Shown in pieces: positions 2,014 through 32,940 of a DNA stretch of 64,000 nt. A program made the translations under genes and the position numbers. Positions within the stretch are counted from its first letter, which is position 1; every line of letters starts with the position of its first letter. The stretch covers positions 59,153-123,152 of the forward strand of contig CAVXRS010000010.1 in assembly GCA_963764215.1 (NCBI GenBank), in the 5' to 3' direction. The DNA is from an uncultured Actinomycetes bacterium. Its GTDB lineage: Bacteria > Actinomycetota > Acidimicrobiia > Acidimicrobiales > Iamiaceae. Below the pieces are notes generated by a model, which saw nothing but the letters and a program-made list of their open reading frames with translations, searched no databases and was not told the origin of the DNA.

Positions 2014-3477
2014 ATGCGACGCATCCTGCCACGGAACCCCCTGCGTCTGCGCACCCGGGTGACGCTGTTCTTCGCGTTGGGTGCGGTGCTCCTGTCGCTC
2101 CTGCTGTCGGTGACGACCTACGGACTCACCCGCAAGAACCTGCTGAACCAGCGGGAATCAGAATCGATCCAACGGTCGTACCTGGACGCGCAGAACGTGC
2201 AGACGGCGCTGAACAACCAGTCCGCCAATGCCGCCGCGCTCAACAACGCCCTTCAGTCCGTGGTGACCGGCGCCGGCACCTACCCGGTGATCCAGATTCC
2301 CGACCCGAACGGCGTACTGGTCAACCAGTCGACGAACACGCAGTATGCGCTGGACTCCATCCCGCCCGCACTCGAGAGCCAGGTGCAACAGGGCCAACCG
2401 GCACTGATGCGGATCGACCACAACGGCGAACCCATGTTGGCCATCGGGTTGCCGCTCCCGAGTCTGCGCGTCGGGACCCACGTGGGCGAGTACTACGAGC
2501 TCGTGTCCCTGATCGACATCTCCCAGACCCTGAACGCGTTGCGGCGGGTGCTGGGAATTGCCACGGCCGTGACCACGGTACTGGGCATGTTGACCGGCTG
2601 GTGGGTGAGTCGGCGGGTCCTTCGCCCTCTCGGCGCCATCGGTCTGGCCGCCGAGGCGATCGCCAGCGGGCGGCTCAACACGCGTCTGGACGACCCACCA
2701 GACCCGGATCTGACCCCCATCGTGGGTTCGTTCAACCACATGGCCGCGGCGCTCGAAGCGCGGGTCGAACAGGACGCCCGGTTCGCGTCGGACGTCTCTC
2801 ACGAATTGCGCAGTCCGATCACGACCCTGGCCGCGTCGATGGCGGTGCTCGAGGCCGGACGGAACCAGATCCCCGAAGGACCGTTGCGCGCGTCGGTCGA
2901 TCTGATCACTGCCGATCTGGCCAGATTCCAACAGCTCGTGGAGGATCTGCTGGAGATTTCCCGCTACGACGCGGGCGCCATCCGCCTGGATCTGTCAGAG
3001 ATCCGTATCCTTGAACTGGTGCAGGCAGTCATCGCGAGCCAACACATCCACACCCCCATCGAGATCGACCCGGCGTTGGCGAAGGCGACCGTGCGGGTCG
3101 ACAAGCGTCGACTGTCTCGTGTGCTCGCCAACCTGATCGACAACGGCACCAAGTACGGCGAGCAGATCGAGCGGGTCGAAATCTCGAAGGCCGGCGAGCG
3201 CATCCGGATCGCCATCGAGGATTCGGGGCCGGGCGTGCCCCAGGCAGATCGTTCGTTGATCTTCGGTCGGTTCTCCCGCGGCGCCGCGGCCGGAAGCAGG
3301 AGCGCGAGCAGCGGAGGTGTCGGACTCGGCCTGGCGCTGGTGAGCGAACATCTCCGGCTCCAGGGCGGCTCGGTGTGGGTCGAGGATCGACCCGACGGAG
3401 CGAGCGGGGCACGTTTCGTGATCGAACTGGCCGATGTGGTCGAACGGGGTGGGCCGACCGAGAGTGTGGCGACATGA
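2014..3477 (+). CDS. Sensor histidine kinase (MtrB-like): 2 TM segments, HAMP, HisKA, HATPase
   Basis: H-box SHELRSPIT, N-box DNGTKYG, G-box GVGLGLALV. It lies directly downstream of the response regulator. Confidence 0.9.
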   Translation: MRRILPRNPLRLRTRVTLFFALGAVLLSLLLSVTTYGLTRKNLLNQRESESIQRSYLDAQNVQTALNNQSANAAALNNALQSVVTGAGTYPVIQIPDPNGVLVNQSTNTQYALDSIPPALESQVQQGQPALMRIDHNGEPMLAIGLPLPSLRVGTHVGEYYELVSLIDISQTLNALRRVLGIATAVTTVLGMLTGWWVSRRVLRPLGAIGLAAEAIASGRLNTRLDDPPDPDLTPIVGSFNHMAAALEARVEQDARFASDVSHELRSPITTLAASMAVLEAGRNQIPEGPLRASVDLITADLARFQQLVEDLLEISRYDAGAIRLDLSEIRILELVQAVIASQHIHTPIEIDPALAKATVRVDKRRLSRVLANLIDNGTKYGEQIERVEISKAGERIRIAIEDSGPGVPQADRSLIFGRFSRGAAAGSRSASSGGVGLGLALVSEHLRLQGGSVWVEDRPDGASGARFVIELADVVERGGPTESVAT

Positions 3478-4097
3478 GCACCGCCCGCCGGTTCGCCGCC
3501 GCTGCGATGGTCCTGATCGTGGCCCTTGCGGCCACCGCCTGTTCGCTCTCTGCAGAGACGTCTCCGAGGGCGATCGACAAGAAGAAGCTCCCGGCGATCC
3601 TCGAGCCGAACGCCACCACGACGACGTCGGTGCCGGCCGACCAGGGTGCATGGGCGCGGGTGTGCTTCGTCCAACAGACGAACAAGAACACCCCCGCCCG
3701 ACTCGACTGCACCCCCCAGAGGCTCAAGAAGATCACTCCGGAGTCCTTGTTCGAAGCTCTGGCGACGGGTCCCGATCCGGCCGAACGCAAGTCGAAGGGC
3801 TATTCGTCGATCGTGCCGACAAAGGCGCAGATGCTGGGGGCGTCCAACGTCGACGAGAAGGGCGTCATGACCATCAACCTCTCCAAGGAGGTCGCGGACA
3901 TCTCCAGCCCGAACGACATCACCATGTACCACCAGATCGTCAAGACGCTCACGGATGCGCGCAACGGCCTCGGAGTCCGGGCGATCGCCCTCAAAGTCGA
4001 CGGGGAGTCGAAGAAAATTCCCACCGACAACGGTCCCAAGAGCATCGCGACCGACACCGACTTCAACGCGGTCGCGACCCAGGGTCCTCCGGCATAG
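3474..4097 (+). CDS. Lipoprotein, short LpqB-like/GerMN-type
   Basis: ATG at 3474 overlaps the kinase stop (ATGA). Signal peptide plus lipobox (LAATAC). Third position of an mtrA-mtrB-lpqB-like operon. The ORF-track start at 3375 was trimmed. Confidence 0.55.
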   Translation: MSTARRFAAAAMVLIVALAATACSLSAETSPRAIDKKKLPAILEPNATTTTSVPADQGAWARVCFVQQTNKNTPARLDCTPQRLKKITPESLFEALATGPDPAERKSKGYSSIVPTKAQMLGASNVDEKGVMTINLSKEVADISSPNDITMYHQIVKTLTDARNGLGVRAIALKVDGESKKIPTDNGPKSIATDTDFNAVATQGPPA

Positions 4098-4133
4098 GAC
4101 CAGCGCTGACAACCGGGACCGGGAATCGGTAGG

Positions 4134-5606
4134 TTGGTCGAGGTGGAGTACGTCTGCGCGCTCGATGCAGGGACGACCGGGGTGCGGGCCGTGGCCGTGA
4201 ATCGCGCCGGCAGGATCGTCGACCACCGCTATCGCGAGTTCACCCAGCACTTCCCGAAAGCCGGTTGGGTCGAGCACGACGCAGAGGAGATCGCCGACGC
4301 GATCCTCGACGTGACCGCGGAGTTGATCGGCGCGCTCGGGAGCGCACCAGTGGCACTCGGCATCACGAACCAGCGGGAAACGGTGGTGGTCTGGGACCGT
4401 CGAACCGGTCGGCCACTCCATCGGGCCATCGTGTGGCAGGACCGACGGGGGGCATCCCGTTGCGACGAGCTCCGCCGCAACCACCTCGATCTCATCCGCC
4501 GGACGACCGGTCTGGTTCCCGATCCGTACTTCTCCGCGACCAAGCTGGAATGGCTCTTCGGCGTGGGGGACGTACCCAGCGGCGCCGAGGTCGCGGTGGG
4601 CACGATCGATTCGTGGCTGCTGTGGCGGCTCACCGGTGGAGCGGTGCACACGACCGAGCCGACGAACGCCTCCCGGACCATGTTGTTCGACATCGGGCGC
4701 TCGGCGTGGTCCGAGGAGCTGTGCGCGATGTTCGACGTGCCCCCGCACGTGCTCCCGGAGGTGCGTCCCTCCTCCGGTCGCTTCGGAACCACTTCGGGAA
4801 TTCCCGGCATTCCCGATGGACTCCCGATCTCCGGTGTCGCCGGCGACCAGCAGGCGTCGCTGTTCGGTCACCTGTGCTTCGAGGACGGAATGGCCAAGAA
4901 CACCTACGGCACCGGATCGTTCGTACTCACCAATGTGGGATCCGAACCGCCCGCGCCGGTCGAGGGCCTCCTTGGCACGGTGGCCTGGCAGATCGACGGG
5001 GAAGCGCCCGTCTACGCCCTGGAAGGTTCGATCTTCTCGACGGGATCGGCAGTGCAGTGGTTGCGGGACGCGCTGGGGGTCATCGCCAGGGCCGACGAAC
5101 TCGAGGGCCTTGCACGCACCTGCGACGATGCCGGCGGCGCCGTGTTCGTACCGGCCTTCACCGGCCTCGGGTCGCCATGGTGGGATCCCGAGGCCCGGGG
5201 AACGTTCGTGGGCATCACCAGAGGTACCGGCCGCGCCCAACTCGCCCGCGCGGTCGTCGACGCCATGGTCTTCCAGACCCGGGACGTGGTCGATGCCATG
5301 ACCGCAGCGTCCGGGCGACCGCTGATCGAGCTCCGGGTCGACGGCGGTGCCGCGGCAATGGACCTGCTCTGCACGCTCCAGGCCGAACAGCTCGCCGCAC
5401 CGGTCGTGCGCGCCGCCACGCTCGAGACCACGGCACTGGGTGCGGCGTTTCTCGCCGGACTGGCCGAAGGATTCTGGTCCGGAACCGACGAGTTGTCCGG
5501 TCTCGCCGACTCGAACGTCCGCTTCGACCCCGCGGGCGAGCCCGACGAGGCCGCGTTCGCCCAGTGGCACCGGGCAGTGGCCCGGTCCCGCTCGCTCAGG
5601 CCGTGA
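4134..5606 (+). CDS. glpK: Glycerol kinase
   Basis: FGGY kinase signatures ALDAGTTGVRA and ITNQRETVVVWDRRTGRPLHRAIVWQDRR. TTG start. Confidence 0.9.
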   Translation: MVEVEYVCALDAGTTGVRAVAVNRAGRIVDHRYREFTQHFPKAGWVEHDAEEIADAILDVTAELIGALGSAPVALGITNQRETVVVWDRRTGRPLHRAIVWQDRRGASRCDELRRNHLDLIRRTTGLVPDPYFSATKLEWLFGVGDVPSGAEVAVGTIDSWLLWRLTGGAVHTTEPTNASRTMLFDIGRSAWSEELCAMFDVPPHVLPEVRPSSGRFGTTSGIPGIPDGLPISGVAGDQQASLFGHLCFEDGMAKNTYGTGSFVLTNVGSEPPAPVEGLLGTVAWQIDGEAPVYALEGSIFSTGSAVQWLRDALGVIARADELEGLARTCDDAGGAVFVPAFTGLGSPWWDPEARGTFVGITRGTGRAQLARAVVDAMVFQTRDVVDAMTAASGRPLIELRVDGGAAAMDLLCTLQAEQLAAPVVRAATLETTALGAAFLAGLAEGFWSGTDELSGLADSNVRFDPAGEPDEAAFAQWHRAVARSRSLRP

Positions 5607-22708: not shown

Positions 22709-23577
22709 AACAGCTCCTCGAGGACCACATAGGTCTCGATGCGCAGCAGGTCGGGTTCGGCCAGCCCGTAGGCGGCGAAGAAGTCGGGCAGGACCTCACC
22801 GGAGAGGTTCCGCGTCAGCGACCGGGCGGTGATCGCCAGGTCCTGGTTGCGATCACCGACCCCGGCGAACGCCCAGTCGAGGGCACCGACCGTGGTGCCG
22901 TACGTGGGGTCGAAGACCACGTTGGAGACACAGAAGTCGCCGTGCACGAGCACCCGATCCTCGAGTTCCGGCGGGCGCGTCGCCGCGGCCATCGAGCGCA
23001 CCCGGTCGAGGAGCTCGGCGGCCCGGTACCGGTCGTAGGGCGCATCGAGCTCTGCGGGTCGCACCAGACCGGCTTCCACCCGGTCGGCTGCGGCCGCGAG
23101 CCGGGCATCGAGCGACGCATCGAAGGGACAGCGGTCCAGGTCGATGCGGCGCGAGGCCTGGTGCAGTGAGGCCAACGCCGTCCCGAACGCGGCGACCGCA
23201 GTCTCGGGCGAGCGCAACAGTCGGGGGTCGGTCACTCCTTCCAGCCAGGAGGTGACGAGCATCGGATCGGGGTCGGCCGCTTCCGGGGCCACGACGAGTT
23301 CGGGCAGGCCGACCCCGCGTCCACCGAGCTGCTCGGCGACCCAGGCGAGACGTTCCGCTTCGGCGTGGATGAGCGCCCCGGCCTCACGCCGCGACGCGTC
23401 GTCGCCCTCACCGTCGGCCGATCCGGCTGACGCGAGCTTGACCGCGAGGTCGCCACGTCCGTCACCGAACCGGGCCCGCCACACTTCGGACCGCCGGCCA
23501 CTCGCGATCCGCTCCCACTCCGCCCCGGCAAGGACCGCTGCACCGGGTCCGTGCAGGATCGGGCCCGCCTCGACCAT
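22705..23577 (-). CDS. Aminoglycoside/choline-kinase-like phosphotransferase (APH family)
   Basis: HGDFCVSNVVF catalytic loop and DWAFAGVGDRNQDLA. Confidence 0.7.
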   Translation of the reverse strand: MVEAGPILHGPGAAVLAGAEWERIASGRRSEVWRARFGDGRGDLAVKLASAGSADGEGDDASRREAGALIHAEAERLAWVAEQLGGRGVGLPELVVAPEAADPDPMLVTSWLEGVTDPRLLRSPETAVAAFGTALASLHQASRRIDLDRCPFDASLDARLAAAADRVEAGLVRPAELDAPYDRYRAAELLDRVRSMAAATRPPELEDRVLVHGDFCVSNVVFDPTYGTTVGALDWAFAGVGDRNQDLAITARSLTRNLSGEVLPDFFAAYGLAEPDLLRIETYVVLEELF

Positions 23578-25013
23578 CAGGAGGCCGCGACGGGAATGCG
23601 TGTCCGGTGTCGGGCCGGCGCGACGATCTCGACGAGCTCACCGCGCAGAAAGTGCGGCGCGGCGCTCGTGATGCGCGTCGACACGTAGGTTCCGGCCCGC
23701 AACGGTTCATCCGCGCTGAAGTGCACCAGCTTGTTCTGACGGGTCCGCCCGGTGGTCACCGACGGGTCACGTTTGGACGGGCCCTGGACCATCACCGATT
23801 CGATCCGACCGACGCGGGCTTCGTGCTTGGCGAGTCCCGATCGCTCGACGACGACCCGCAGACGCTCGAAGCGCTCGGCGATGACCTCGGCGGGCACCGG
23901 CGGGAGGTTCTTCTCGGTCGCCTCGGTCCCCGGACGGGGCGAGTAGATGAACGTGTAGGCGCTGTCGTACTCGGCGGCCGCGACGACGTCCAGGGTCTGG
24001 GCGAAGTCCTCGTCGGTCTCGCCGGGGAAGCCGACGATGATGTCGGTGGTCACCGCCAGGTCGTCGATCGCGGCCCGGGCCGCGGCGAGTCGGTCCAGAT
24101 ACCGCTGGGCGGTGTAGCCACGGTGCATCGCCGCGAGCACCCGGTCGCTGCCCGCCTGCAGCGGCAGATGGAGGTGCTCGCACACGGCCGGCAGCTCGGC
24201 CATCGCAGCGATCGTGTCGTCACGCAGGTCCTTGGGGTGCGGGCTGGTGTAGCGGACCCGCTCGATCCCCTCGACGTCGCCCACGGCGCGCAGCAGCTCG
24301 GCGAACAACGGCCGGATCCGCACCTGTTCGCCGCCGCGTCGACGGGCGAGGGCGAGATCCCGGCCGTAGGAGTTGACGTTCTGGCCCAGCAGGGTCACTT
24401 CGGTGACACCCCGGTCGGCGAGCGTGCGCACCTCGTCGACGATGCGTGCGAAAGGACGGCTGATCTCGGGGCCACGGACCGCCGGGACGATGCAGAACGC
24501 GCAGTTGTTGTCACAGCCGATCTGGATCGTGATCCAGGCCGAATGGCCGGTGGTGCGACGTGCGGGCAGCGCCGAGGGGAACAGTTCGTGGTCATCGGCG
24601 ACCGTGGCTTCGAGAATCTCGGTGATCGGGCCTTCGTCGTCGGCGTGGTGCAGCAACTCGGCGGCCCGGTGCACATTGTGGGTGCCCATCACCACGTCCA
24701 CGTAGGGCGCACGGGCGCGGATCGCCTCGCGGTCCTTCTGGGCGAGACAGCCGGCGACCACGATGCGCTTGTCCGCGTCGGCGTCCTTGAGCGGTTTGAG
24801 ATGGCCGAGCGTGCCGTACAGCTTGTTGTCGGCGTTCTCGCGCACACAGCAGGTGTTCAGCACGATCACGTCCGCCGAGGCCTCGTCGGCGGCCGGAGTG
24901 AGCCCGTCGGCTTCGAGAAGGCCGGCGATGCGTTCGGAGTCGTGCTCGTTCATCTGGCACCCGAAGGTGCGCACCACGTAGGTCCTGCCAGTGGGCTCCG
25001 GCTCGACGGTCAT
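23577..25013 (-). CDS. miaB: tRNA-2-methylthio-N6-dimethylallyladenosine synthase
   Basis: FGCQMNEHDSE, radical-SAM CDNNCAFCIVP and a TRAM domain. ATG at 25013. Confidence 0.9.
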   Translation of the reverse strand: MTVEPEPTGRTYVVRTFGCQMNEHDSERIAGLLEADGLTPAADEASADVIVLNTCCVRENADNKLYGTLGHLKPLKDADADKRIVVAGCLAQKDREAIRARAPYVDVVMGTHNVHRAAELLHHADDEGPITEILEATVADDHELFPSALPARRTTGHSAWITIQIGCDNNCAFCIVPAVRGPEISRPFARIVDEVRTLADRGVTEVTLLGQNVNSYGRDLALARRRGGEQVRIRPLFAELLRAVGDVEGIERVRYTSPHPKDLRDDTIAAMAELPAVCEHLHLPLQAGSDRVLAAMHRGYTAQRYLDRLAAARAAIDDLAVTTDIIVGFPGETDEDFAQTLDVVAAAEYDSAYTFIYSPRPGTEATEKNLPPVPAEVIAERFERLRVVVERSGLAKHEARVGRIESVMVQGPSKRDPSVTTGRTRQNKLVHFSADEPLRAGTYVSTRITSAAPHFLRGELVEIVAPARHRTRIPVAAS

Positions 25014-25104
25014 GGCTGCATTGTCCCACGGAGGACCGGATGCACGACAACGCACGTGCGCACCCGGGCCGACGCTCGTCCCTTCCGACCTAGAATCGCC
25101 CCTC

Positions 25105-26094
25105 GTGTTCGACCTGTTCCGCTCGCGTGATCATCGGGCCGAAGCACTCGGGAAGATCGCCCGGGCGCGGGGGATCCAGTTCTCACCGGACGACCCGTTC
25201 GGCTGTGAACGGGCACCTTTTCCGCTGCTGCGGCGGGGGGACACCCGCAAAGTGTCCTCGGTGCTGTGGCGCGACGACGATCCCCATGTGGTGCGGGTCT
25301 TCGACTACCGGTACTTCTCCGATCGCGGCGACTGGACCGATCCTTCCCCCCTCTTCACGGGCGCGACCCTCCTTGCAAACGCTGCCTGGCCGTACCTCTC
25401 GGTCACTCCCGCGCCGGGCAAATTGGGTTTTTCCACCCGACTCGACGGGCACCACACCTTCGACATGCTGGATCCGGCGTTCGCCGAGGCGTTCACCGTG
25501 CGGACCTCCGACGACCGGTTCGCCACGGCGTTGCTGGATGCGGGCATGCGCAGGTTCCTGCTCGACACCGCACGCGCACTGGACATCGAGTTCAACGGCG
25601 CCTGGTGCTTCGCCTTCGCCGAGCAGATCCCGGTCGACCTGGTTCCCAACGTCTTCGGGTTCCTGGATGATCTGCTCGCTCGGATACCCCGCGTGGTCGG
25701 TTTGCTGTACCCGCCGCCCCTGGAAGGGGGCATGGACACCGCGATGCCGGACCCGGGCGAGCTCGCCCGGCCGGAGGAGACCGTGTCCGACGAGATCCTC
25801 CGCGCCTCCCTGCGACGCCGTCGCTCGTCGAGTCGGCGGGCACTCGGCAGCCTGTTCGGCTTGGACACCCAACTCCCCTCCTATGACGACATGATCGCCA
25901 CTGGTGCCGCCGAGCTCGCGACCCACCAGTCCATCATCGATTCCGATCGGTGGACCGACATCGGTGACCGTTCCGGTGCGGCAGCCGACGAAGACCCGGA
26001 CAAGGAGGAATTCGACCTCGACGGCAACCCGATCGAGCCCCATGCGCAGGACCCGTGGGGGCCGGGTCGCCCGATGCCCGAACAAGACCGGTGA
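25105..26094 (+). CDS. Hypothetical protein; its stop lies 6 nt inside the left direct repeat
   Basis: High-GC codon usage and no motif I recognise. GTG at 25105 was chosen to avoid overlap with miaB. Confidence 0.45.
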   Translation: MFDLFRSRDHRAEALGKIARARGIQFSPDDPFGCERAPFPLLRRGDTRKVSSVLWRDDDPHVVRVFDYRYFSDRGDWTDPSPLFTGATLLANAAWPYLSVTPAPGKLGFSTRLDGHHTFDMLDPAFAEAFTVRTSDDRFATALLDAGMRRFLLDTARALDIEFNGAWCFAFAEQIPVDLVPNVFGFLDDLLARIPRVVGLLYPPPLEGGMDTAMPDPGELARPEETVSDEILRASLRRRRSSSRRALGSLFGLDTQLPSYDDMIATGAAELATHQSIIDSDRWTDIGDRSGAAADEDPDKEEFDLDGNPIEPHAQDPWGPGRPMPEQDR

Positions 26095-26341
26095 CCGGAG
26101 CGTCGGCCACCGATCCGCACGGGTCGTCGGATCCGAGAATCAGTCGTCGAGGCTGATGGGTTCCTCGTCGGCTTCGGTCATCTCGTCCTCGTCTGCCTCG
26201 ACCAGGCCGACGGCCTGGCGGATCTTCTCGGACACCTCGACCATGATCTCGGGATTCTCGGCCAGGAACTGCTTGGCGTTCTCCCGACCCTGCCCGAGCT
26301 GCTCGCCCTCGTAGGTGTACCAGGCACCCGACTTGCGGATG
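26089..26341. repeat. Direct repeat copy 1 (253 bp): orphan recA 3' fragment plus 51 bp downstream
   Basis: My alignment to 28968-29220 shows 4 mismatches in 253 positions. Confidence 0.9.
26140..26341 (-). pseudogene. recA: recA 3' fragment (last 66 codons plus stop)
   Basis: It encodes [66 protein letters not shown], identical to the C-terminus of the intact RecA. Confidence 0.9.
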
Positions 26342-26410
26342 CGGCGGGACCCACATCCATTCGTGTCAATCAGCGCCGCAATCTGAAACCATGAAGTCAA
26401 CAGGATGCGC

Positions 26411-26439
26411 TTGAAATGGAATTATCGTTCGGGTAGCGT
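26411..26439 (+). promoter_or_regulatory. Candidate promoter TTGAAA-N17-TAGCGT for the island operon
   Basis: Read directly, about 40 nt upstream of the ATG at 26480. The -10 element fits the actinobacterial TAnnnT. Confidence 0.3.
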
Positions 26440-26479
26440 CACGTGAGTTCGGGCTATCAGCGCTCGGGGGTTGGGCGAT

Positions 26480-27745
26480 ATGAATCGTCGCAAGAAGGTC
26501 AGAGATCGGCAGCGGCGAAGGGTACGGACCCGCTCCAAGTCGATGTTCCTTGTCGGCGTCGGCGCCGCGGTCGCACTCCCTGCGGCCGTGGCAGCACCGC
26601 CAGCAAGTGGCCAGTCCGCCGCTGCACCGAACTCGCCGACCGGGTCCACTGCCGCACCGGAATCCTGCAAGCCCGAAAATGCGGGGCCCGAGAAGCTGGT
26701 CTCCATGACCGACTTCGCCAAATCCGTGTCGCCACAGGATCCGACCGCCATCAGGGCTGCGGCTATTCAGAACAGTGACATGGATGCGGTCTCGTTTCAG
26801 CCGCCGGCGGGGTTCGACCCGCTGACCGCATCCAATGATCTATTGACCAAGTTCGGGTTCCCGGTAAAGCCCGACGATCCCAGTGCTGCGGCGATCTGGA
26901 CGAAGCAAATGCAGAAGGTCAAGGCATACCTTGCTTCGAAGCCGCCGCTGTCCGGGCTCTGCACCCTGCCCGCACGGGAAGAACCGCCCACCCAGGTCTC
27001 GGACGCTACCGCCGGCTTGCAGACCTCGAATGGCTCGCAATCCGTCACTAGCTCACAAGCTCCCCACAATTCGCTCAACTGGGGCGGCATGTGGAACAAC
27101 GACAAGCCGTCGAACTTCTACACAAGCATCAGCGCGACCTACAAGCAGCCGACTTTCGTCTCGGCGTGTACCTCCACCTCAGGACATTCGACCTGGGTCG
27201 GTCTCGGCGGGATAAGCGGGCGTCCGCTGATGCAGGTCGGAACCGACCATGTACGAGGCAACTTGAGTTCCGATTTTGCTTTCTGGGAGACGTTCGGGGG
27301 CCCCGTTCCGACTGGGGGACAAAATGTGATCCCGAACATGAGCGTGCATGCCGGCCAGCCCTACACCGCCGAGGTCTACTACGACAAGAATGCCGACGTG
27401 GCCACGTTCCGCGTCATCGACAAGAACGGAAACACCCAGGGATACCTACTCCATGGCTATACCGTCAACGGGACCTTTTACCCTGCCAGTGACTGGTACT
27501 ACGGCGATCCCGCGGAAGTGATCGACGAGCGGACCTACTACGGCTTTCTTCCTCAGTTCACCGAGACGACCGGGCCGACCGCCTGGTCGAACATCCAGGC
27601 CAACGAACAGAACGCCGGAAACTTCCCCTGGCAGGAAGTCGACATGTACGCGGAATCGAACGGCCAGGGGGATCTGCTCGACTATCCCGAATTTCCCGGC
27701 GGCTCGACCTTCACCATGAACAATCGTTGGTGGAACTGTGAGTGA
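26480..27745 (+). CDS. Secreted peptidase G1 (eqolisin / scytalidoglutamic peptidase-like) family protein with a long N-terminal pro-region
   Basis: Arg-rich N-terminus plus a hydrophobic signal segment. The motifs NWGG, STWVGLGG, LMQVG (catalytic Gln position), FAFWETF and AEVIDE (catalytic Glu position) occur in the same order as in G1 peptidases. Confidence 0.55.
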   Translation: MNRRKKVRDRQRRRVRTRSKSMFLVGVGAAVALPAAVAAPPASGQSAAAPNSPTGSTAAPESCKPENAGPEKLVSMTDFAKSVSPQDPTAIRAAAIQNSDMDAVSFQPPAGFDPLTASNDLLTKFGFPVKPDDPSAAAIWTKQMQKVKAYLASKPPLSGLCTLPAREEPPTQVSDATAGLQTSNGSQSVTSSQAPHNSLNWGGMWNNDKPSNFYTSISATYKQPTFVSACTSTSGHSTWVGLGGISGRPLMQVGTDHVRGNLSSDFAFWETFGGPVPTGGQNVIPNMSVHAGQPYTAEVYYDKNADVATFRVIDKNGNTQGYLLHGYTVNGTFYPASDWYYGDPAEVIDERTYYGFLPQFTETTGPTAWSNIQANEQNAGNFPWQEVDMYAESNGQGDLLDYPEFPGGSTFTMNNRWWNCE

Positions 27746-28076
27746 CCCGGACCACGGCCCAATCGCCACAGAGTCGGACCACGCGGAAGCCATGCCGGCA
27801 GACTCTCAATCGTGTGACGAGGCTCGTCGAAAGCCCAGCCTGCTCGACAAGCCCCGCCTCACGGTCGTGGCAACGATCGGCGTCGCATTGCTCCTGAGCG
27901 GCGCAGCGTTGGTACTCGTACACCATAGTCATCGACAGATCAAATGTGACGACCGCGTTGGCATAAACCTACCTGCCGATATTCCTCCGACCAAGGGCGC
28001 GGTGTATCAGGATCCCAAGCAGGGGTGTAGGTGGGTAGTTCGAAAAGACGCGGACCCTGGACAACCCGGCTCGTGA
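27738..28076 (+). CDS. Small single-pass membrane protein, translationally coupled to the peptidase
   Basis: Its GTG start overlaps the upstream stop (GTGAGTGA). One TM helix (LTVVATIGVALLLSGAALVLV). Confidence 0.5.
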   Translation: MSDPDHGPIATESDHAEAMPADSQSCDEARRKPSLLDKPRLTVVATIGVALLLSGAALVLVHHSHRQIKCDDRVGINLPADIPPTKGAVYQDPKQGCRWVVRKDADPGQPGS

Positions 28077-28097
28077 GTACGCGATCGGCGCGCCAAC

Positions 28098-28973
28098 TTG
28101 GGCGCCACTACTACTCCACCGCCGAATGATCAACATGCCGAGGCGACGATCGCGTACTTGAACCAGACGATACCCGGTCTGCCTGACGGTTTCGGCGAGA
28201 GCCTCACCGACCGCCTGTTCGACTGCGTCGCGCACGGTCAGGCCCAAGCGATCATCATGGCGTCGATGAACCTCGTCCCTCACCTGGATCGAACCTCGTT
28301 CATCGAGAGCACAACCATCGCGGACCTGGTCGCGTGGCTGGGACCCGAACTCCCAGTTACCGGTGCCTCACGTGGATCGAGAGTCCAGCGCCCTCGTGGA
28401 TCGTACGCCACCGCGGCGGCCACACTCCGGCCGATCATCGACAGCGACCTGCAGCAGTCCTACCTCGCCTCGCTCGATCCACGCAACGCACACCGATGGC
28501 GCTTCCGCGGACAAACGCCCTCACCGGACGACTTCAGACGCTCATTCTTCGCACCCGGCGTACTCGCCCAGTTCGCGGTCGTCCCCACCGAAGCGGAGTC
28601 GAACGCAGCACTGGGGATCGTGAGCGCCTACGACGCTGACCTCACAAACGGCTACGCCAGCGTCGCATTCCAGCGCTTCGAATCGGCGACGCCGGACGCG
28701 AGCCGAGACCGGGGCCTCATGATCGACGGTTTCCTCGTCTTCATCCAGTACCTGTTCGACCACTTCAACTTTCGGAAGATCTACCTGGAAATCCCCGAGT
28801 ACAACCTCTGCCTGTTCGAAGGGGGCGCACGAGACATCCTCGTCGAGGAGGGACGACTCAAAGATCACCTCTACTACGGTGATCGATACTGGGACCAGTG
28901 CATCCACGCCCTCTACCGGGCACGCTGGGAGGAGGTCGCCGACCCTTTTCGAGGCGCATGGCAAGGTCGGTGA
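28098..28973 (+). CDS. Protein with an unknown N-terminal domain and a C-terminal GNAT (RimJ/RimL-like) acetyltransferase domain
   Basis: LRPIIDSDL...WRFRGQTPSPDDF...FRKIYLEIPEYN...EGRLKDHLYYGDRYWDQCIHALYRARW. The TTG start is uncertain. The stop lies 6 nt inside the right repeat. Confidence 0.5.
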   Translation: MGATTTPPPNDQHAEATIAYLNQTIPGLPDGFGESLTDRLFDCVAHGQAQAIIMASMNLVPHLDRTSFIESTTIADLVAWLGPELPVTGASRGSRVQRPRGSYATAAATLRPIIDSDLQQSYLASLDPRNAHRWRFRGQTPSPDDFRRSFFAPGVLAQFAVVPTEAESNAALGIVSAYDADLTNGYASVAFQRFESATPDASRDRGLMIDGFLVFIQYLFDHFNFRKIYLEIPEYNLCLFEGGARDILVEEGRLKDHLYYGDRYWDQCIHALYRARWEEVADPFRGAWQGR

Positions 28974-29220
28974 CCGGAGCGTCGGCCACCGACCCGCACG
29001 GGTCGTCGGATCCGAGAATCAGTCGTCGAGGCTGATGGGTTCCTCGTCGGCTTCGGTCATCTCGTCCTCGTCTGCCTCGACCAGGCCGACGGCCTGGCGG
29101 ATCTTCTCGGACACCTCGACCATGATCTCGGGATTCTCGGCCAGGAACTGCTTGGCGTTCTCCCGGCCCTGCCCGAGCTGTTCGCCTTCGTAGGTGTACC
29201 AGGCACCCGACTTGCGGATG
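28968..29220. repeat. Direct repeat copy 2 (253 bp), continuous with intact recA
   Basis: See copy 1. Confidence 0.9.
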
Positions 29221-30059
29221 ATGTCCTCGTCGACCCCGATGTCGAGCACCGAGCCCTCACGGCTGATGCCCTTGCCGTACATGATGTCGAACTCGGCCTG
29301 CCGGAACGGCGGGGCCACCTTGTTCTTGACGATCTTGGCCCGGGTGCGGTTGCCCACCACCTCGGGACCGTCCTTGATCGCCTCGATGCGGCGTACGTCG
29401 ATGCGGACCGACGAGTAGAACTTGAGCGCCCGCCCACCCGGGGTCGTCTCGGGTGACCCGAACATCACCCCGATCTTCTCGCGGAGCTGGTTGATGAAGA
29501 TGCACACGGTGTGGGACTTGTTCAGATTGGCGGTGAGCTTGCGCAGCGCCTGGGACATCAGCCGGGCCTGGAGCCCCACGTGGGAGTCCCCCATCTCGCC
29601 CTCGATCTCGGCACGCGGGGTGAGCGCCGCCACCGAGTCGATCACCACCACGTCCAGGGCGTTCGAGCGGATCAGCATGTCGGTGATCTCCAGGGCCTGC
29701 TCCCCGGTGTCGGGCTGGGAGATCAACAACTCGTCGATGTCGACCCCGATGTTGGCCGCGTACGCCGGGTCCATCGCGTGCTCCGCGTCGATGTAGGCAG
29801 AGATCCCACCGTTGCGCTGCGCCTCGGCGACCACGTGCATGGCCAGGGTCGACTTCCCCGAGGCCTCGGGTCCGTACACCTCGACGACCCGACCCCGCGG
29901 CAGTCCGCCGACGCCGAGCGCCAGGTCGAGGGCCAGTGCCCCGGTGGAGACGGTTTCGACCTGCATCGAACCCTTCTCCCCCATCTTCATCACCGATCCG
30001 GTGCCGTACTGCTTCTCGATCTGGCTGAGGGCCATGTCCAGGGCCTTGTCTCGCTCCAC
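29019..30059 (-). CDS. recA: Recombinase RecA (no intein)
   Basis: Walker [10 protein letters not shown] and the L2 region. GTG start preceded by AAGGAG. Confidence 0.95.
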
Positions 30060-30245
30060 GATCCGTCTCCTTGTTTCTGCCTTGTGGCTTCGCTGTGTGG
30101 TCGGGCTGCACGGGTCTGAGCGCAGCGATCAGTCGATGTCGGTCACCCTAAAGACGGGGTGGGACACTTTCGGTGGATGGGTATTCGACGGCTGGGCCCG
30201 GGTGGTCCCGACCGACAGACCATCGAATGACAACAGCGTAGTTTC

Positions 30246-30259
30246 CGAACGGGTGTTCG
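30246..30259. promoter_or_regulatory. SOS (LexA) box CGAACGGGTGTTCG upstream of recA
   Basis: Reverse complement of the 14-mer at the lexA locus. It lies about 190 nt upstream of the recA start and 2 nt from the cinA stop. Confidence 0.8.
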
Positions 30260-30260
30260 G

Positions 30261-31535
30261 TCAACGACCCTCGCCGCGCGACAGCGCCCGGCGCAGCAGG
30301 TCCAGGGCGCTGATCGTGGCATACGCCCGCACGCGCGCCCGGTCGCCGAACAGCGACAGCCGGTGGGCGTGACACCTCCTCGCCCAACGCGAGGCCCACG
30401 AACACCGTGCCGGGAGGCTGACCGTCCTGCTCGGCCGGCCCCGCCACGCCGGTGATCGACAGCCCCACCTCGGCGCCGAGCAACCGCCGCACCCCGTCGG
30501 CCATCGCCTCGGCCGCCGCCGCGGCGACCACCGGTCCGCGGGGCACCTCGAGCAGGTCCCACTTCACCTCGCTCGCGTAGCCTGACCACCCCACCGGTCA
30601 CCACGTCCGAGGCGCCGGCCACGTCGGTCAACCGGGCGGTGACGAGTCCCCCGGTCATCGACTCGGCCACCGCCAGATGCGCACCCGAGGCACGGAGACG
30701 GTCGAGCACCACGACTCTCCATGGTCTGATCATCCTCGCCGAAGACCAGTTCCCCGAGTTCGTCACGCAGGGAATCGGCGACGTGGTCGACCGCGGCGCG
30801 GGCCGCGGCGGCGCTGTCGGCCTTGGCCGTCACCCGCACCTTGATGCCCTCGATCCCACTGGCGAGAAAGGCGATCGTCGCGCGACCGTCCTCGTCGAGC
30901 TCGGCGATCCTGCCCTCGAGGCGCTCGGCCAGGGACGATTCGGACTCACCCCAGGTGCGCAGCGTGCGCGAATGGATCGCCACGGCGCCGCCCTGGCGGG
31001 CGAGCAGATCGGGCAGCACGGCCCGCTCGAGCATCTCGGCCATCTCGTGGGGCACGCCAGGGATCGCGTAGACGACCTTTTCGACGGGCGCCCCGGCTGT
31101 ATCGGTTCTCGCCACGGGGCAGATCAGTCCCGGCGCCGTCCCCCGGGTCTGGGGGATGACGATGGCCCCTTCGGGCACGTCGGCCTGGACCAGGTTGTTG
31201 TCGGCCATCCGTCGGTCACGGGCCGCGAACATGGCCCGGATCACGTCTACCAACGCCTCGTCCCGGATCAGCTCGACGCCCATGACCCTCGCCAGCACCT
31301 GGCGGGTGATGTCGTCGTGAGTCGGGCCCAGTCCCCCGCACACGATCACCGCATCGGCCCGCCCCAGTGCGCCCTCGATCGCGTCGACGACCCGTTCGAG
31401 GTTGTCGCCGACCTTCGTCTGGCGCAGCGAGTCGATGCCCGATGCGGCCAGGCGTTCGCCGATCACCGCCGAGTTGGTGTCGATGACCTGGCCGAGCAGC
31501 AACTCGGTTCCCACCGCCACCACCTCACAGCGCAT
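30261..31535 (-). pseudogene. cinA: CinA (MoCF-binding domain plus PncC-type nicotinamide-nucleotide amidase domain); 3 frame switches
   Basis: N-terminal domain MRCEVVAVGTELLLGQVIDTNS is intact. The C-terminal homology (VAESMTGG / YASEVKWDLL...ITGVAGP / HRLSLFGDRARVRAYATISALDLLRR) is spread over frames 2, 3 and back to 1. The total length of 1275 is a multiple of 3. Confidence 0.8.
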
Positions 31536-31725
31536 CCGCCGACCCTATCCCGCCCGTCGTCATCAGGCGGGTGCACGTCCCAGGCGCCCGGCGACAACTC
31601 GGACCGTGGCGCCAGGTGCAGTACGCCGCGGTAGGTGAGCCGGCGTCCGGTCCGGTCACCCCGTGCGCTTCGAACGTTGCTGGTCGCCGGCCGAAGGTGT
31701 CCTACCCGGCTGGGATGATGAACAC

Positions 31726-32940
31726 ATGTTCGATTCGGTGGCGCTCTGCGAGACCGGGCGGAACCTCGCCGGTTCCGATGTGCGGCTGTGTTCCGATGAG
31801 GAACTGTTCGACGCGGTCGGTGGGCTGGCCGCGTTGCGGAGTTTCGTGGAGACCACCGAAGCCCACGTGCTCGCCGAATTGGAGTCCCGGGGATCGACCG
31901 ATCGGGTGCACGGGATGCGCACCGTCGCCTGGGCCGCGGCGACCACCGGCGCCAACCGCGGCCCGATCCACAGCCGCCTCCACGTCGGCCGGGCCCTGCG
32001 CTGCCCTTTCGACCGGATCGACGATGCCATCGTGAACGGAGCGTTGAGCTTCGATCACGCCAAAGCCCTCGTCGATGTCACCAACCCGCGTTGCACCGAC
32101 GCTCTCGCCGCCGCCCAGGACCAGATCATCGACCTCGCCCACGGTGCCACGTTCACCCAATGGAAACGCGACGTCACCGCCCTCGCCGAAATCGCCGACG
32201 AAGACGGCATCGAACCCGACCCCTACGCGGGTAACGAACTGCGCCTCCCCAAAACCCTGGACGGGCGCACCGACCTGTCCGGCACCCTCGACGCCGCAAA
32301 CGGCCTGTCGGTACGCACCGCGATCGACACCAAAGCCGACGAACTGTTCCACCAATTCACCCGCGACCACGACACCACCACCGACATTGCCATCCCCGGG
32401 CGTGCCACCCTGCGCGCCCTCGCCCTGGTCGAACTGCTCCGCACCGCCATCGGCGCCGAACCCGGCACCGGCACAGCCCCACGCGCTGAGATCACCCTCA
32501 TCGCGCATGACCGGCAAACCTGTGCCACCGACGGCACCCCACTCCCCCAAGCTGCCATCGACACCTGGGGTTGTGACCCGCACGTGTGGGGAGTGCTCAT
32601 CGACAAAATGGGCATCCCCATCGACGTCGGCCATCGCAGCCGGCTCGCCACCACCGCCCAACGCCACGCCATCACCATCCGCGACGCAGGCTGCACCTTC
32701 CCCGGATGCGACGCCCCCATCAACTGGTGCGACCTCCACCACGCCACCCCCTGGCAACAAGGCGGCCCCACCGACCTCGCCAACCTCGTCGCCCTCTGCC
32801 GCCACCACCACGGCGTCACCCACCGCAACGGCTGGACCATGACCCTCGACCACCACCAAACCCCCCACTGGACCACCCCCACCGGCACCCACCTCACCGG
32901 CCAACGCCACCACCGACGGCGTGGCGGACCGGAACCGTGA
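31726..32940 (+). CDS. DUF222 plus HNH endonuclease protein (REP13E12-like family)
   Basis: C-terminal HNH module: RDAGCTFPGCDAP...CDLHHATPWQQGGPTDLANLVALCRHHH. Confidence 0.75.
   Translation: MFDSVALCETGRNLAGSDVRLCSDEELFDAVGGLAALRSFVETTEAHVLAELESRGSTDRVHGMRTVAWAAATTGANRGPIHSRLHVGRALRCPFDRIDDAIVNGALSFDHAKALVDVTNPRCTDALAAAQDQIIDLAHGATFTQWKRDVTALAEIADEDGIEPDPYAGNELRLPKTLDGRTDLSGTLDAANGLSVRTAIDTKADELFHQFTRDHDTTTDIAIPGRATLRALALVELLRTAIGAEPGTGTAPRAEITLIAHDRQTCATDGTPLPQAAIDTWGCDPHVWGVLIDKMGIPIDVGHRSRLATTAQRHAITIRDAGCTFPGCDAPINWCDLHHATPWQQGGPTDLANLVALCRHHHGVTHRNGWTMTLDHHQTPHWTTPTGTHLTGQRHHRRRGGPEP

Follow-up and report, generated by a model that had tools for sequence, protein, structure and literature searches.

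The 64-kb window analysed here (64,000 nucleotides of contig CAVXRS010000010.1, from an uncultured bacterium of the order Acidimicrobiales whose best RecA match, with one genome considered per species, is that of Aquihabitans sp. G128 at 83%) carries a three-gene islet behind recA, and this islet looks like the real footprint of a derived, recombinase-free, single-crossover insertion. A repeat-finder search between positions 24,000 and 31,500 returned one direct repeat of 259 nt, with 98% identity and a start-to-start spacing of 2879, the remaining repeat families there being chance matches of only 20–40 nt. Base-by-base comparison of the 253-nt core of this repeat (26089-26341 against 28968-29220) found four differences, at 26114 (T/C), 26287 (A/G), 26302 (C/T) and 26308 (C/T), for an identity between copies of 98.4%; the longest identical run is 172 bp (26115-26286), and identity stops sharply past 26341/29220. 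Each copy holds codons 281-346 of recA (i.e., the last 66), the stop codon and 51 bp downstream, and the 66 encoded residues are the same in both. The right copy runs on into recA, whose 3' end is restored and whose reading frame is intact, and the left copy is an orphan without the upstream part of recA. Two genes convergent on these recA ends, one encoding a 329-residue protein and the other being the third gene of the islet (orf291), terminate at equivalent TGA codons (26092-26094 and 28971-28973). The orphan fragment lies in an open 86-codon reading frame on the minus strand (26140-26400, with a TTG start), in which 20 codons from the left flank of the insert are fused to the C-terminal 66 residues of RecA.

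Between the repeats are about 2.6 kb with three co-directional open reading frames (ORFs), and the composition of this insert is foreign to its host. Its GC content is 61.5% (59.8% in the lowest 400-nt window), compared with 66.0% for recA, 67.3% for the 329-residue gene, 69.0% for miaB and a mean of 67.8% for the window, within which it is the lowest-GC stretch of 2.6 kb; GC content at third codon positions (GC3) is 0.65–0.77 in the insert genes vs. 0.83–0.93 in host genes. At its left end, GC falls to 55.8% (26342-26470). Only 129–201 nt of the insert are non-coding, and it contains no att-like (attachment-site) core beyond the 259-nt repeat. Its ends show neither terminal inverted repeats nor direct similarity above that of shuffled sequences; the leader at its left end has no similarity elsewhere in the window, and no second copy of the insert was found there. 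Searches of the three ORFs against Pfam, NCBIfam and PADLOC detected no recombinase, transposase, relaxase or replication domain, and none was detected among the clearly coding ORFs scanned between ~16.7 and 41.5 kb (not every ORF in that interval), which include dapD-like, aminotransferase, hflX, APH, cinA, DUF222, luciferase-like, rimO-like and ftsK genes.

An earlier, sequence-only reading of this stretch had described a 253-bp repeat with only four differences, copies that each comprise the final 66 codons of recA with its stop and another 51 bp (the right one intact and the left one orphaned), two convergent genes ending at the same TGA, and three co-directional ORFs between the repeats; base-by-base comparison and the ORF map bear out each of these points. 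Its statement that no integrase, transposase, relaxase or replication gene lies in or beside the unit holds among the ORFs scanned, and a recombinase domain, which it had allowed might still emerge from profile searches of the three ORFs, did not emerge. In calling the island AT-richer it was right about the direction (61.5% vs. 67.8%) and wrong about the size, the measured GC not being the ~55% that it gave.

In Acidimicrobiales (loci L001-L018), recA is followed on the same strand by miaB, at a distance of 0.15–0.7 kb in six loci and of 2–8 kb in others, and this variable interval has the look of a regional hot spot at which genes are gained; a homologue of recX was not noticed immediately after recA in these loci. 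Closer relatives were located through homologues of the 329-residue gene. In L088, a JGI metagenome contig that does not reach miaB and whose RecA is 88–93% identical, the 329-residue homologue and recA are convergent and 70 nt apart; in L089, an ENA contig with 88% identity in RecA and 81% in miaB, the order is miaB, the 329-residue homologue on the opposite strand, and recA convergent upon it, with 16 nt between the two stop codons. Neither contig has the insert or a duplicated recA piece at recA, and this empty site, in relatives at genus or family distance rather than of the same species, indicates that the insertion is the derived state. Because the repeat copies are 98.4% alike and the repeat segment is only 81–86% identical to its counterparts in L088 and L089, the lineage's separation from these relatives is far older than the duplication. 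The cargo occurs at none of the 85 related recA loci, the two nearest included, and a second recA fragment occurs in none of the 85 other recA-bearing loci, apart from the intein-split recA of L088. That gene (2046-4190) encodes 714 aa with a LAGLIDADG intein after about residue 200, and the recA of the window is without an intein.

Table 1. Features of the recA-miaB interval and its islet (positions in the 64-kb window).
Feature	Position	Strand	Description
miaB	23577..25055	-	Pfam UPF0004 + Radical_SAM + TRAM; far side of the variable recA-miaB interval
329-aa gene	25105..26094	+	Native conserved hypothetical gene, convergent on recA; GC3 0.83, host-like
Left direct-repeat copy	26083..26341	-	Orphan recA 3' end (codons 281-346); remainder of copy: stop codon 26140-26142, 45-bp spacer, final codons of the 329-aa gene with its TGA
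Insert left end	26342..26542	+	Non-coding leader of cargo gene 1; novel joint with recA codon 281 at 26341/26342
Cargo gene 1 (orf424)	26471..27745	+	Secreted; C-terminal part distantly similar to G1 glutamic peptidases (Peptidase_A4)
Cargo gene 2 (orf112)	27738..28076	+	Small single-pass membrane protein, 112 aa (LTVVATIGVALLLSGAALVLV)
Cargo gene 3 (orf291)	28098..28973	+	GNAT-type acetyltransferase with ~100-aa N-terminal extension
Right direct-repeat copy	28962..29220	-	Working 3' end of recA and downstream spacer
Intact recA	29019..30059	-	346 aa; Pfam RecA 5.5e-140, RecA_C 2.5e-26

Homologues of the cargo occur at other sites, and their surroundings bear on how the islet came to lie at recA. 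The order orf424, small transmembrane ORF, orf291 recurs on three short contigs (L085-L087) with 53–56% GC and 60–67% amino-acid identity. In L087, the orf424 homologue begins ~180 nt past the 3' end of a transposase gene of the DDE (rve) type (L087 1-552), which we read as IS30-like from its motifs; since the gene is cut, its Pfam rve match is only 0.0017. A (CA)12 microsatellite separates the transposase end from the orf424 homologue. This IS30-like fragment has no match in the 64-kb window, and the left flank of the insert resembles neither the region upstream of the L087 homologue nor that downstream of its transposase. No RecA end is encoded in the 99 nt that follow the orf291 homologue of L086. 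Among other orf291 homologues (52–55% identity; 29 were found in all), one adjoins rve and Transposase_mut fragments (L168) and another an ISL3 zinc-ribbon fragment (L169), for a total of three occurrences of cargo homologues beside transposase fragments; in L094 and L169, the orf291 homologue stands behind a protein that shares the N-terminal part of orf424. An islet of ~3 kb in L081 (7800-11000), with 52–60% GC inside an actinobacterial contig of ~70% GC, contains an orf291 homologue and three small ORFs of unknown function, and has neither flanking direct repeats nor a recombinase, making it a second mini-islet of this gene family that is free of a recombinase; long direct repeats are likewise absent around the orf291 homologues of L081-L083. 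None of the 74 metagenome loci examined has an orf291-family member beside recA. As judged from these loci, the cargo appears to be a travelling accessory module that reaches variable regions by different routes and is not tied to recA, and the best explanation for the three-gene segment is that it was horizontally acquired and is not self-mobile.

The orf424 product has a hydrophobic N-terminus, as read from its translation, and the source annotation starts the gene at 26543, yielding 400 aa; a homologue with 41% identity (P0032) matches PF01828 at 1e-11, and a tblastn search returned an annotated G1 family glutamic endopeptidase (28% identity, 2e-8). The start of orf112 overlaps the stop of orf424, and its product matches no family in Pfam, NCBIfam or PADLOC, although a small transmembrane ORF takes the equivalent position in L085 and L087. 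The match of orf291 to PF13302 is weak (4e-4), and its family profile (A4) matches SpeG/AAC(6')/RimJ structures at 1e-5; members of this family differ in the length of the C-terminus past an FRGxW motif, and in the window the gene runs convergently towards recA, with its stop being the TGA within the right repeat copy. Scans with NCBIfam and PADLOC gave no cargo matches, and searches of plasmid and viral sequences with the cargo returned nothing relevant other than a distant G1 peptidase on an Alicyclobacillus plasmid.

The best explanation for this arrangement, which we favour tentatively and with somewhat less than even confidence, is a Campbell-type insertion, in which a small circle carrying the cargo and ~259 bp of recA entered the chromosome by a RecA-dependent single crossover. 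Observed directly are the repeat, the layout of one intact and one orphaned end, the foreign base composition of the insert, its lack of a recombinase and the relatives' empty site; beyond these, we infer the following course. The cargo would once have adjoined recA in the same or a close lineage, where it would have picked up ~259 bp of the recA 3' end, and the two together would have formed a non-replicating circle of 2879 bp. One RecA-mediated crossover between this circle and the chromosomal recA 3' end (an insertion-duplication) would then leave recA intact and place an orphan of its last 66 codons beyond the insert, with no need for an integrase; subsequently, RecA-dependent recombination between the repeats could release the islet as a circle and restore the empty site. 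The anatomy of the locus is that of a single crossover: the repeats correspond to the whole segment of homology, one copy is intact, and the orphan is cut at the 26341/26342 joint. An element recombinase, terminal inverted repeats and a short target-site duplication are all lacking, as a single-crossover insertion predicts. When homology-facilitated illegitimate recombination (HFIR) was selected for in E. coli, most events were single crossovers of circular molecules that duplicated 109–950 bp of the locus, and the true HFIR events usually involved deletions and 3–10-bp microhomology (PMC3240628). Given this precedent, the Campbell-type reading is the best supported and classic HFIR is less likely.

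Several observations weigh against a single crossover with a captured circle. It requires a donor in which the cargo lies beside a near-identical recA 3' end, and none was found. The four differences between the copies identify no two alleles, and simple divergence after one duplication fits them. Polarised against L088 and L089, at least one of the four falls on each copy (as judged from the outgroups and from codon usage), and all four would be GC-to-AT transitions should the usual bias in that direction hold at the two sites to which no polarity can be assigned. A further point concerns where the duplicated block begins. The last four codons of the 329-residue gene (CAAGACCGGTGA) recur at the orf291 terminus as CAAGGTCGGTGA: outside the core there is a further match of CAAG (26083-26086 and 28962-28965), two mismatches follow, and then CGGTGA, such that the 329-residue protein ends Q-D-R-stop and the orf291 product Q-G-R-stop. 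From this match in the last codons, the duplicated block seems to start inside the 329-residue gene, and a one-step duplication with capture explains such a start equally well.

The three coding differences between the copies are synonymous third-position transitions (chance probability 0.01–0.12), and the intact recA copy has GAA at a position where recA elsewhere prefers GAG by 20:1. We considered whether the exclusively synonymous differences prove that the repeat copies derive from two functional recA alleles and rejected this, the probability being only 0.01–0.12 and the changes being distributed over both copies. The four differences thus favour neither a single crossover nor a one-step event over the other.

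The strongest competitor to the Campbell-type insertion, which we consider possible but clearly the less probable of the two, is a one-step illegitimate or replication-based event in which a tandem duplication of 259 bp took up foreign linear DNA at its joint. Such an event might proceed by template switching, across a sister-chromatid bridge, by end-joining at staggered breaks, or through a variant of HFIR with its joint inside the anchor, and in each case both repeat copies would derive from the host chromosome, removing the need for a circle with homology to recA or for the donor that was not found. It accommodates the apparent beginning of the duplicated block in the last four codons of a native gene, and if host sequence was duplicated around the insert, it would be natural for orf291 to read into a copy of its neighbour's stop codon, in a family whose C-termini vary after FRGxW; the differences between copies are likewise compatible with symmetric divergence after a duplication. 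However, the HFIR events that have been measured consist of deletions with 3–10-bp microhomology (PMC3240628), and here, with a recA anchor present, recipient DNA is duplicated and not deleted, and no microhomology can be demonstrated at 26341/26342. The mechanisms invoked are also rarer and undocumented for this group, and the CAAG match could be due to chance.

It is unlikely, although the lineage is known mainly from metagenome bins, that the arrangement was produced by assembly, either by threading together an empty-site chromosome and a separate, tandem or heterogeneous cargo molecule or by joining two strain variants. The identical stretch at 26115-26286 exceeds the k-mers usual for short reads, and cinA, with at least two frameshifts, may contain consensus errors. 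But all four junctions are in unique sequence, the copies differ at four positions, and most long genes of the window are intact. Moreover, some real molecule must contain the joint (26341/26342) at which mid-recA sequence passes into the leader of the cargo. A 2.9-kb circle that has no replication gene could not be maintained by itself, so that its presence would imply an integrated form.

Within the general framework of a recA-bearing circle, a more ambitious proposal is that the islet is a recombinase-free mobile mini-circle whose captured 259-bp piece of recA acts as a portable homology attachment site, allowing it to cycle in and out through the host RecA. Under this proposal, the circle would spread between related strains, recA being sufficiently conserved to offer a landing pad everywhere, and in one version the orphan 86-codon ORF would express a free RecA C-terminal peptide. 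We regard this as rather improbable. Because none of the 85 recA loci has an orphan piece and cargo homologues never occur beside recA, recA is better regarded as a homology anchor, incidental and highly conserved, than as a dedicated attachment site, and this evidence gives no support to a new class of mobile element or to a dedicated attachment site in recA.

The interpretive claims of the sequence-only reading are supported in part. A derived, compositionally foreign, recombinase-less insertion next to recA is supported, the empty site that it proposed to look for is seen in L088 and L089, and its Campbell-type insertion of a 2879-bp circle agrees with the predicted anatomy and with the 109–950 bp precedent (PMC3240628). 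Its suggestion that recA served as a landing or attachment site is not supported by the survey of 85 recA loci and of cargo homologues; for its alternative of an element mobilised in trans by an integrase there is no evidence here; and, while it knew of no such attachment site described in this group, recA has already been described as an insertion target in Vibrio, for an island that bears an integrase (PMC4405046).

That Vibrio island, which makes recA a proven target of an integrase-bearing element (PMC4405046), is one reason to consider a decayed or cis-mobilisable site-specific element at the recA 3' end, with its integrase lost or supplied in trans. Another is that integrative elements classically leave behind a duplicated target-gene 3' end while restoring the reading frame. 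We nevertheless hold this origin to be very improbable: there is no recombinase gene or pseudogene in an insert with so little non-coding sequence, no integrase was present among the window ORFs scanned, the site is not recurrently occupied in the 85 recA loci, and the cargo is found at unrelated sites. The usual att cores are, in addition, far shorter than a 259-bp repeat of 98% identity.

Cis-mobilisable elements (CIMEs) and other islands that lack an integrase and are bounded by att sites are the natural comparison here, and examples include those of the ICESt1/ICESt3 family of Streptococcus thermophilus at the 3' end of fda. The recA islet shares with CIMEs its small size, its lack of an integrase, its direct repeats and its position at the 3' end of a housekeeping gene. 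However, the repeats of CIMEs are att cores, which are short and serve as recognition sites for the integrase of a related integrative and conjugative element, whereas that of the islet is 259 bp of plain gene sequence, and we know of no cognate element for it.

If the cargo were ancestral, the present structure could have arisen by tandem duplication in situ of the cargo together with the recA 3' end, with most of the first copy then being deleted and the cargo being lost from relatives. A tandem duplication would indeed create a joint of the 26341/26342 type, but this history requires at least two further events and runs counter to the foreign composition of the insert and to its absence from the 85 related recA loci (the two nearest among them), and the C-terminus of the 329-residue gene is full-length and native-looking; we give it hardly any credence. 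An insertion sequence or composite transposon was rejected, there being no transposase and no terminal inverted repeats.

Returning to the Campbell-type insertion, its nearest match in mechanism is laboratory insertion-duplication, and its nearest natural analogue is C-terminal displacement. Suicide-plasmid mutagenesis and the single-crossover events seen in E. coli (PMC3240628) likewise generate repeats of the length of the homology, with one intact and one truncated copy and without a recombinase; the 259 bp found here are within the experimental range of 109–950 bp, and in both settings the insertion is reversible through the repeats. The laboratory cases differ in that the present event is natural, took place in an uncultured-type lineage of Acidimicrobiales, and involves an inferred circle without vector or replication functions. 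In the effector-immunity loci of Rhs, contact-dependent growth inhibition (CDI) and type VI secretion systems (T6SS), C-terminal displacement leaves orphaned 3' ends, and homology-anchored recombination has been proposed as the cause (PMC5361080). Those systems resemble the recA islet in having a conserved gene as the anchor, an orphan 3' end that is pushed downstream and retains part of the conserved sequence, and no dedicated recombinase. In them, however, the 3' end of the gene is changed and a toxin and immunity gene are brought in, whereas the two recA ends encode identical residues and the cargo is on the opposite strand and unrelated to the function of recA.

The island already known at recA is the recA mobile element (RME) of Vibrio cholerae S24. 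It is 32.8 kb long, encodes a phage integrase, has inverted repeats of 9 bp, brings along a complete, divergent recA and disrupts that of the host by inserting at a defined internal position (PMC4405046). Both it and the islet are horizontally acquired, lower-GC islands at recA in cells that keep a working recA. In contrast to RME, the islet is 2.6 kb long, has no phage integrase, second complete recA or 9-bp inverted repeats, and leaves recA uninterrupted.

If confirmed by reads, the islet would constitute a natural case in which foreign genes were fixed by host homologous recombination alone, with an anchor that is among the most conserved of genes and in a structure that could pop out through its own repeats. 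Such events, familiar from laboratory genetics and seldom documented in wild, uncultured lineages, show how integrase-less gene islets can arise and move between related strains. The practical lesson is a caution against taking a duplicated 3' gene end alone as the sign of an element driven by an integrase.

The genes around the islet appear to belong to the host. The miaB gene of the window is 81–83% identical to those of L089 and L090, and homologues of the 329-residue gene have 55–62% identity and equal length, including the C-terminus; this gene received no family assignment from Pfam, NCBIfam or PADLOC. Neither tRNA genes nor Rfam families were detected anywhere in the 64-kb window. The spacer between recA and the genes convergent on it was considered as a strong bidirectional terminator hairpin and rejected: it folds no better than shuffled sequences, and consensus scans add nothing.

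Just upstream of recA, cinA (30148-31535, minus strand), which begins ~90 bp beyond the recA start codon, is broken into at least three reading-frame segments by at least two frameshifts. Its N-terminal 323 aa are in the ORF at 30564-31535, the part containing AVAESMTGG is in the ORF at 30143-30766, and that with SEVKWDLLEV is in the ORF at 30148-30594, after which the first frame resumes for the last ~30 residues. In relatives, cinA is a single ORF of 422 aa. The broken cinA is either a pseudogene or the product of local consensus errors, and it bears in this way on the quality of the assembly. Farther on, the gene for a DUF222 protein (31639-32937, plus strand) sits between cinA and the luciferase-like gene, which are adjacent in L088, making this a second insertion/deletion difference near recA.

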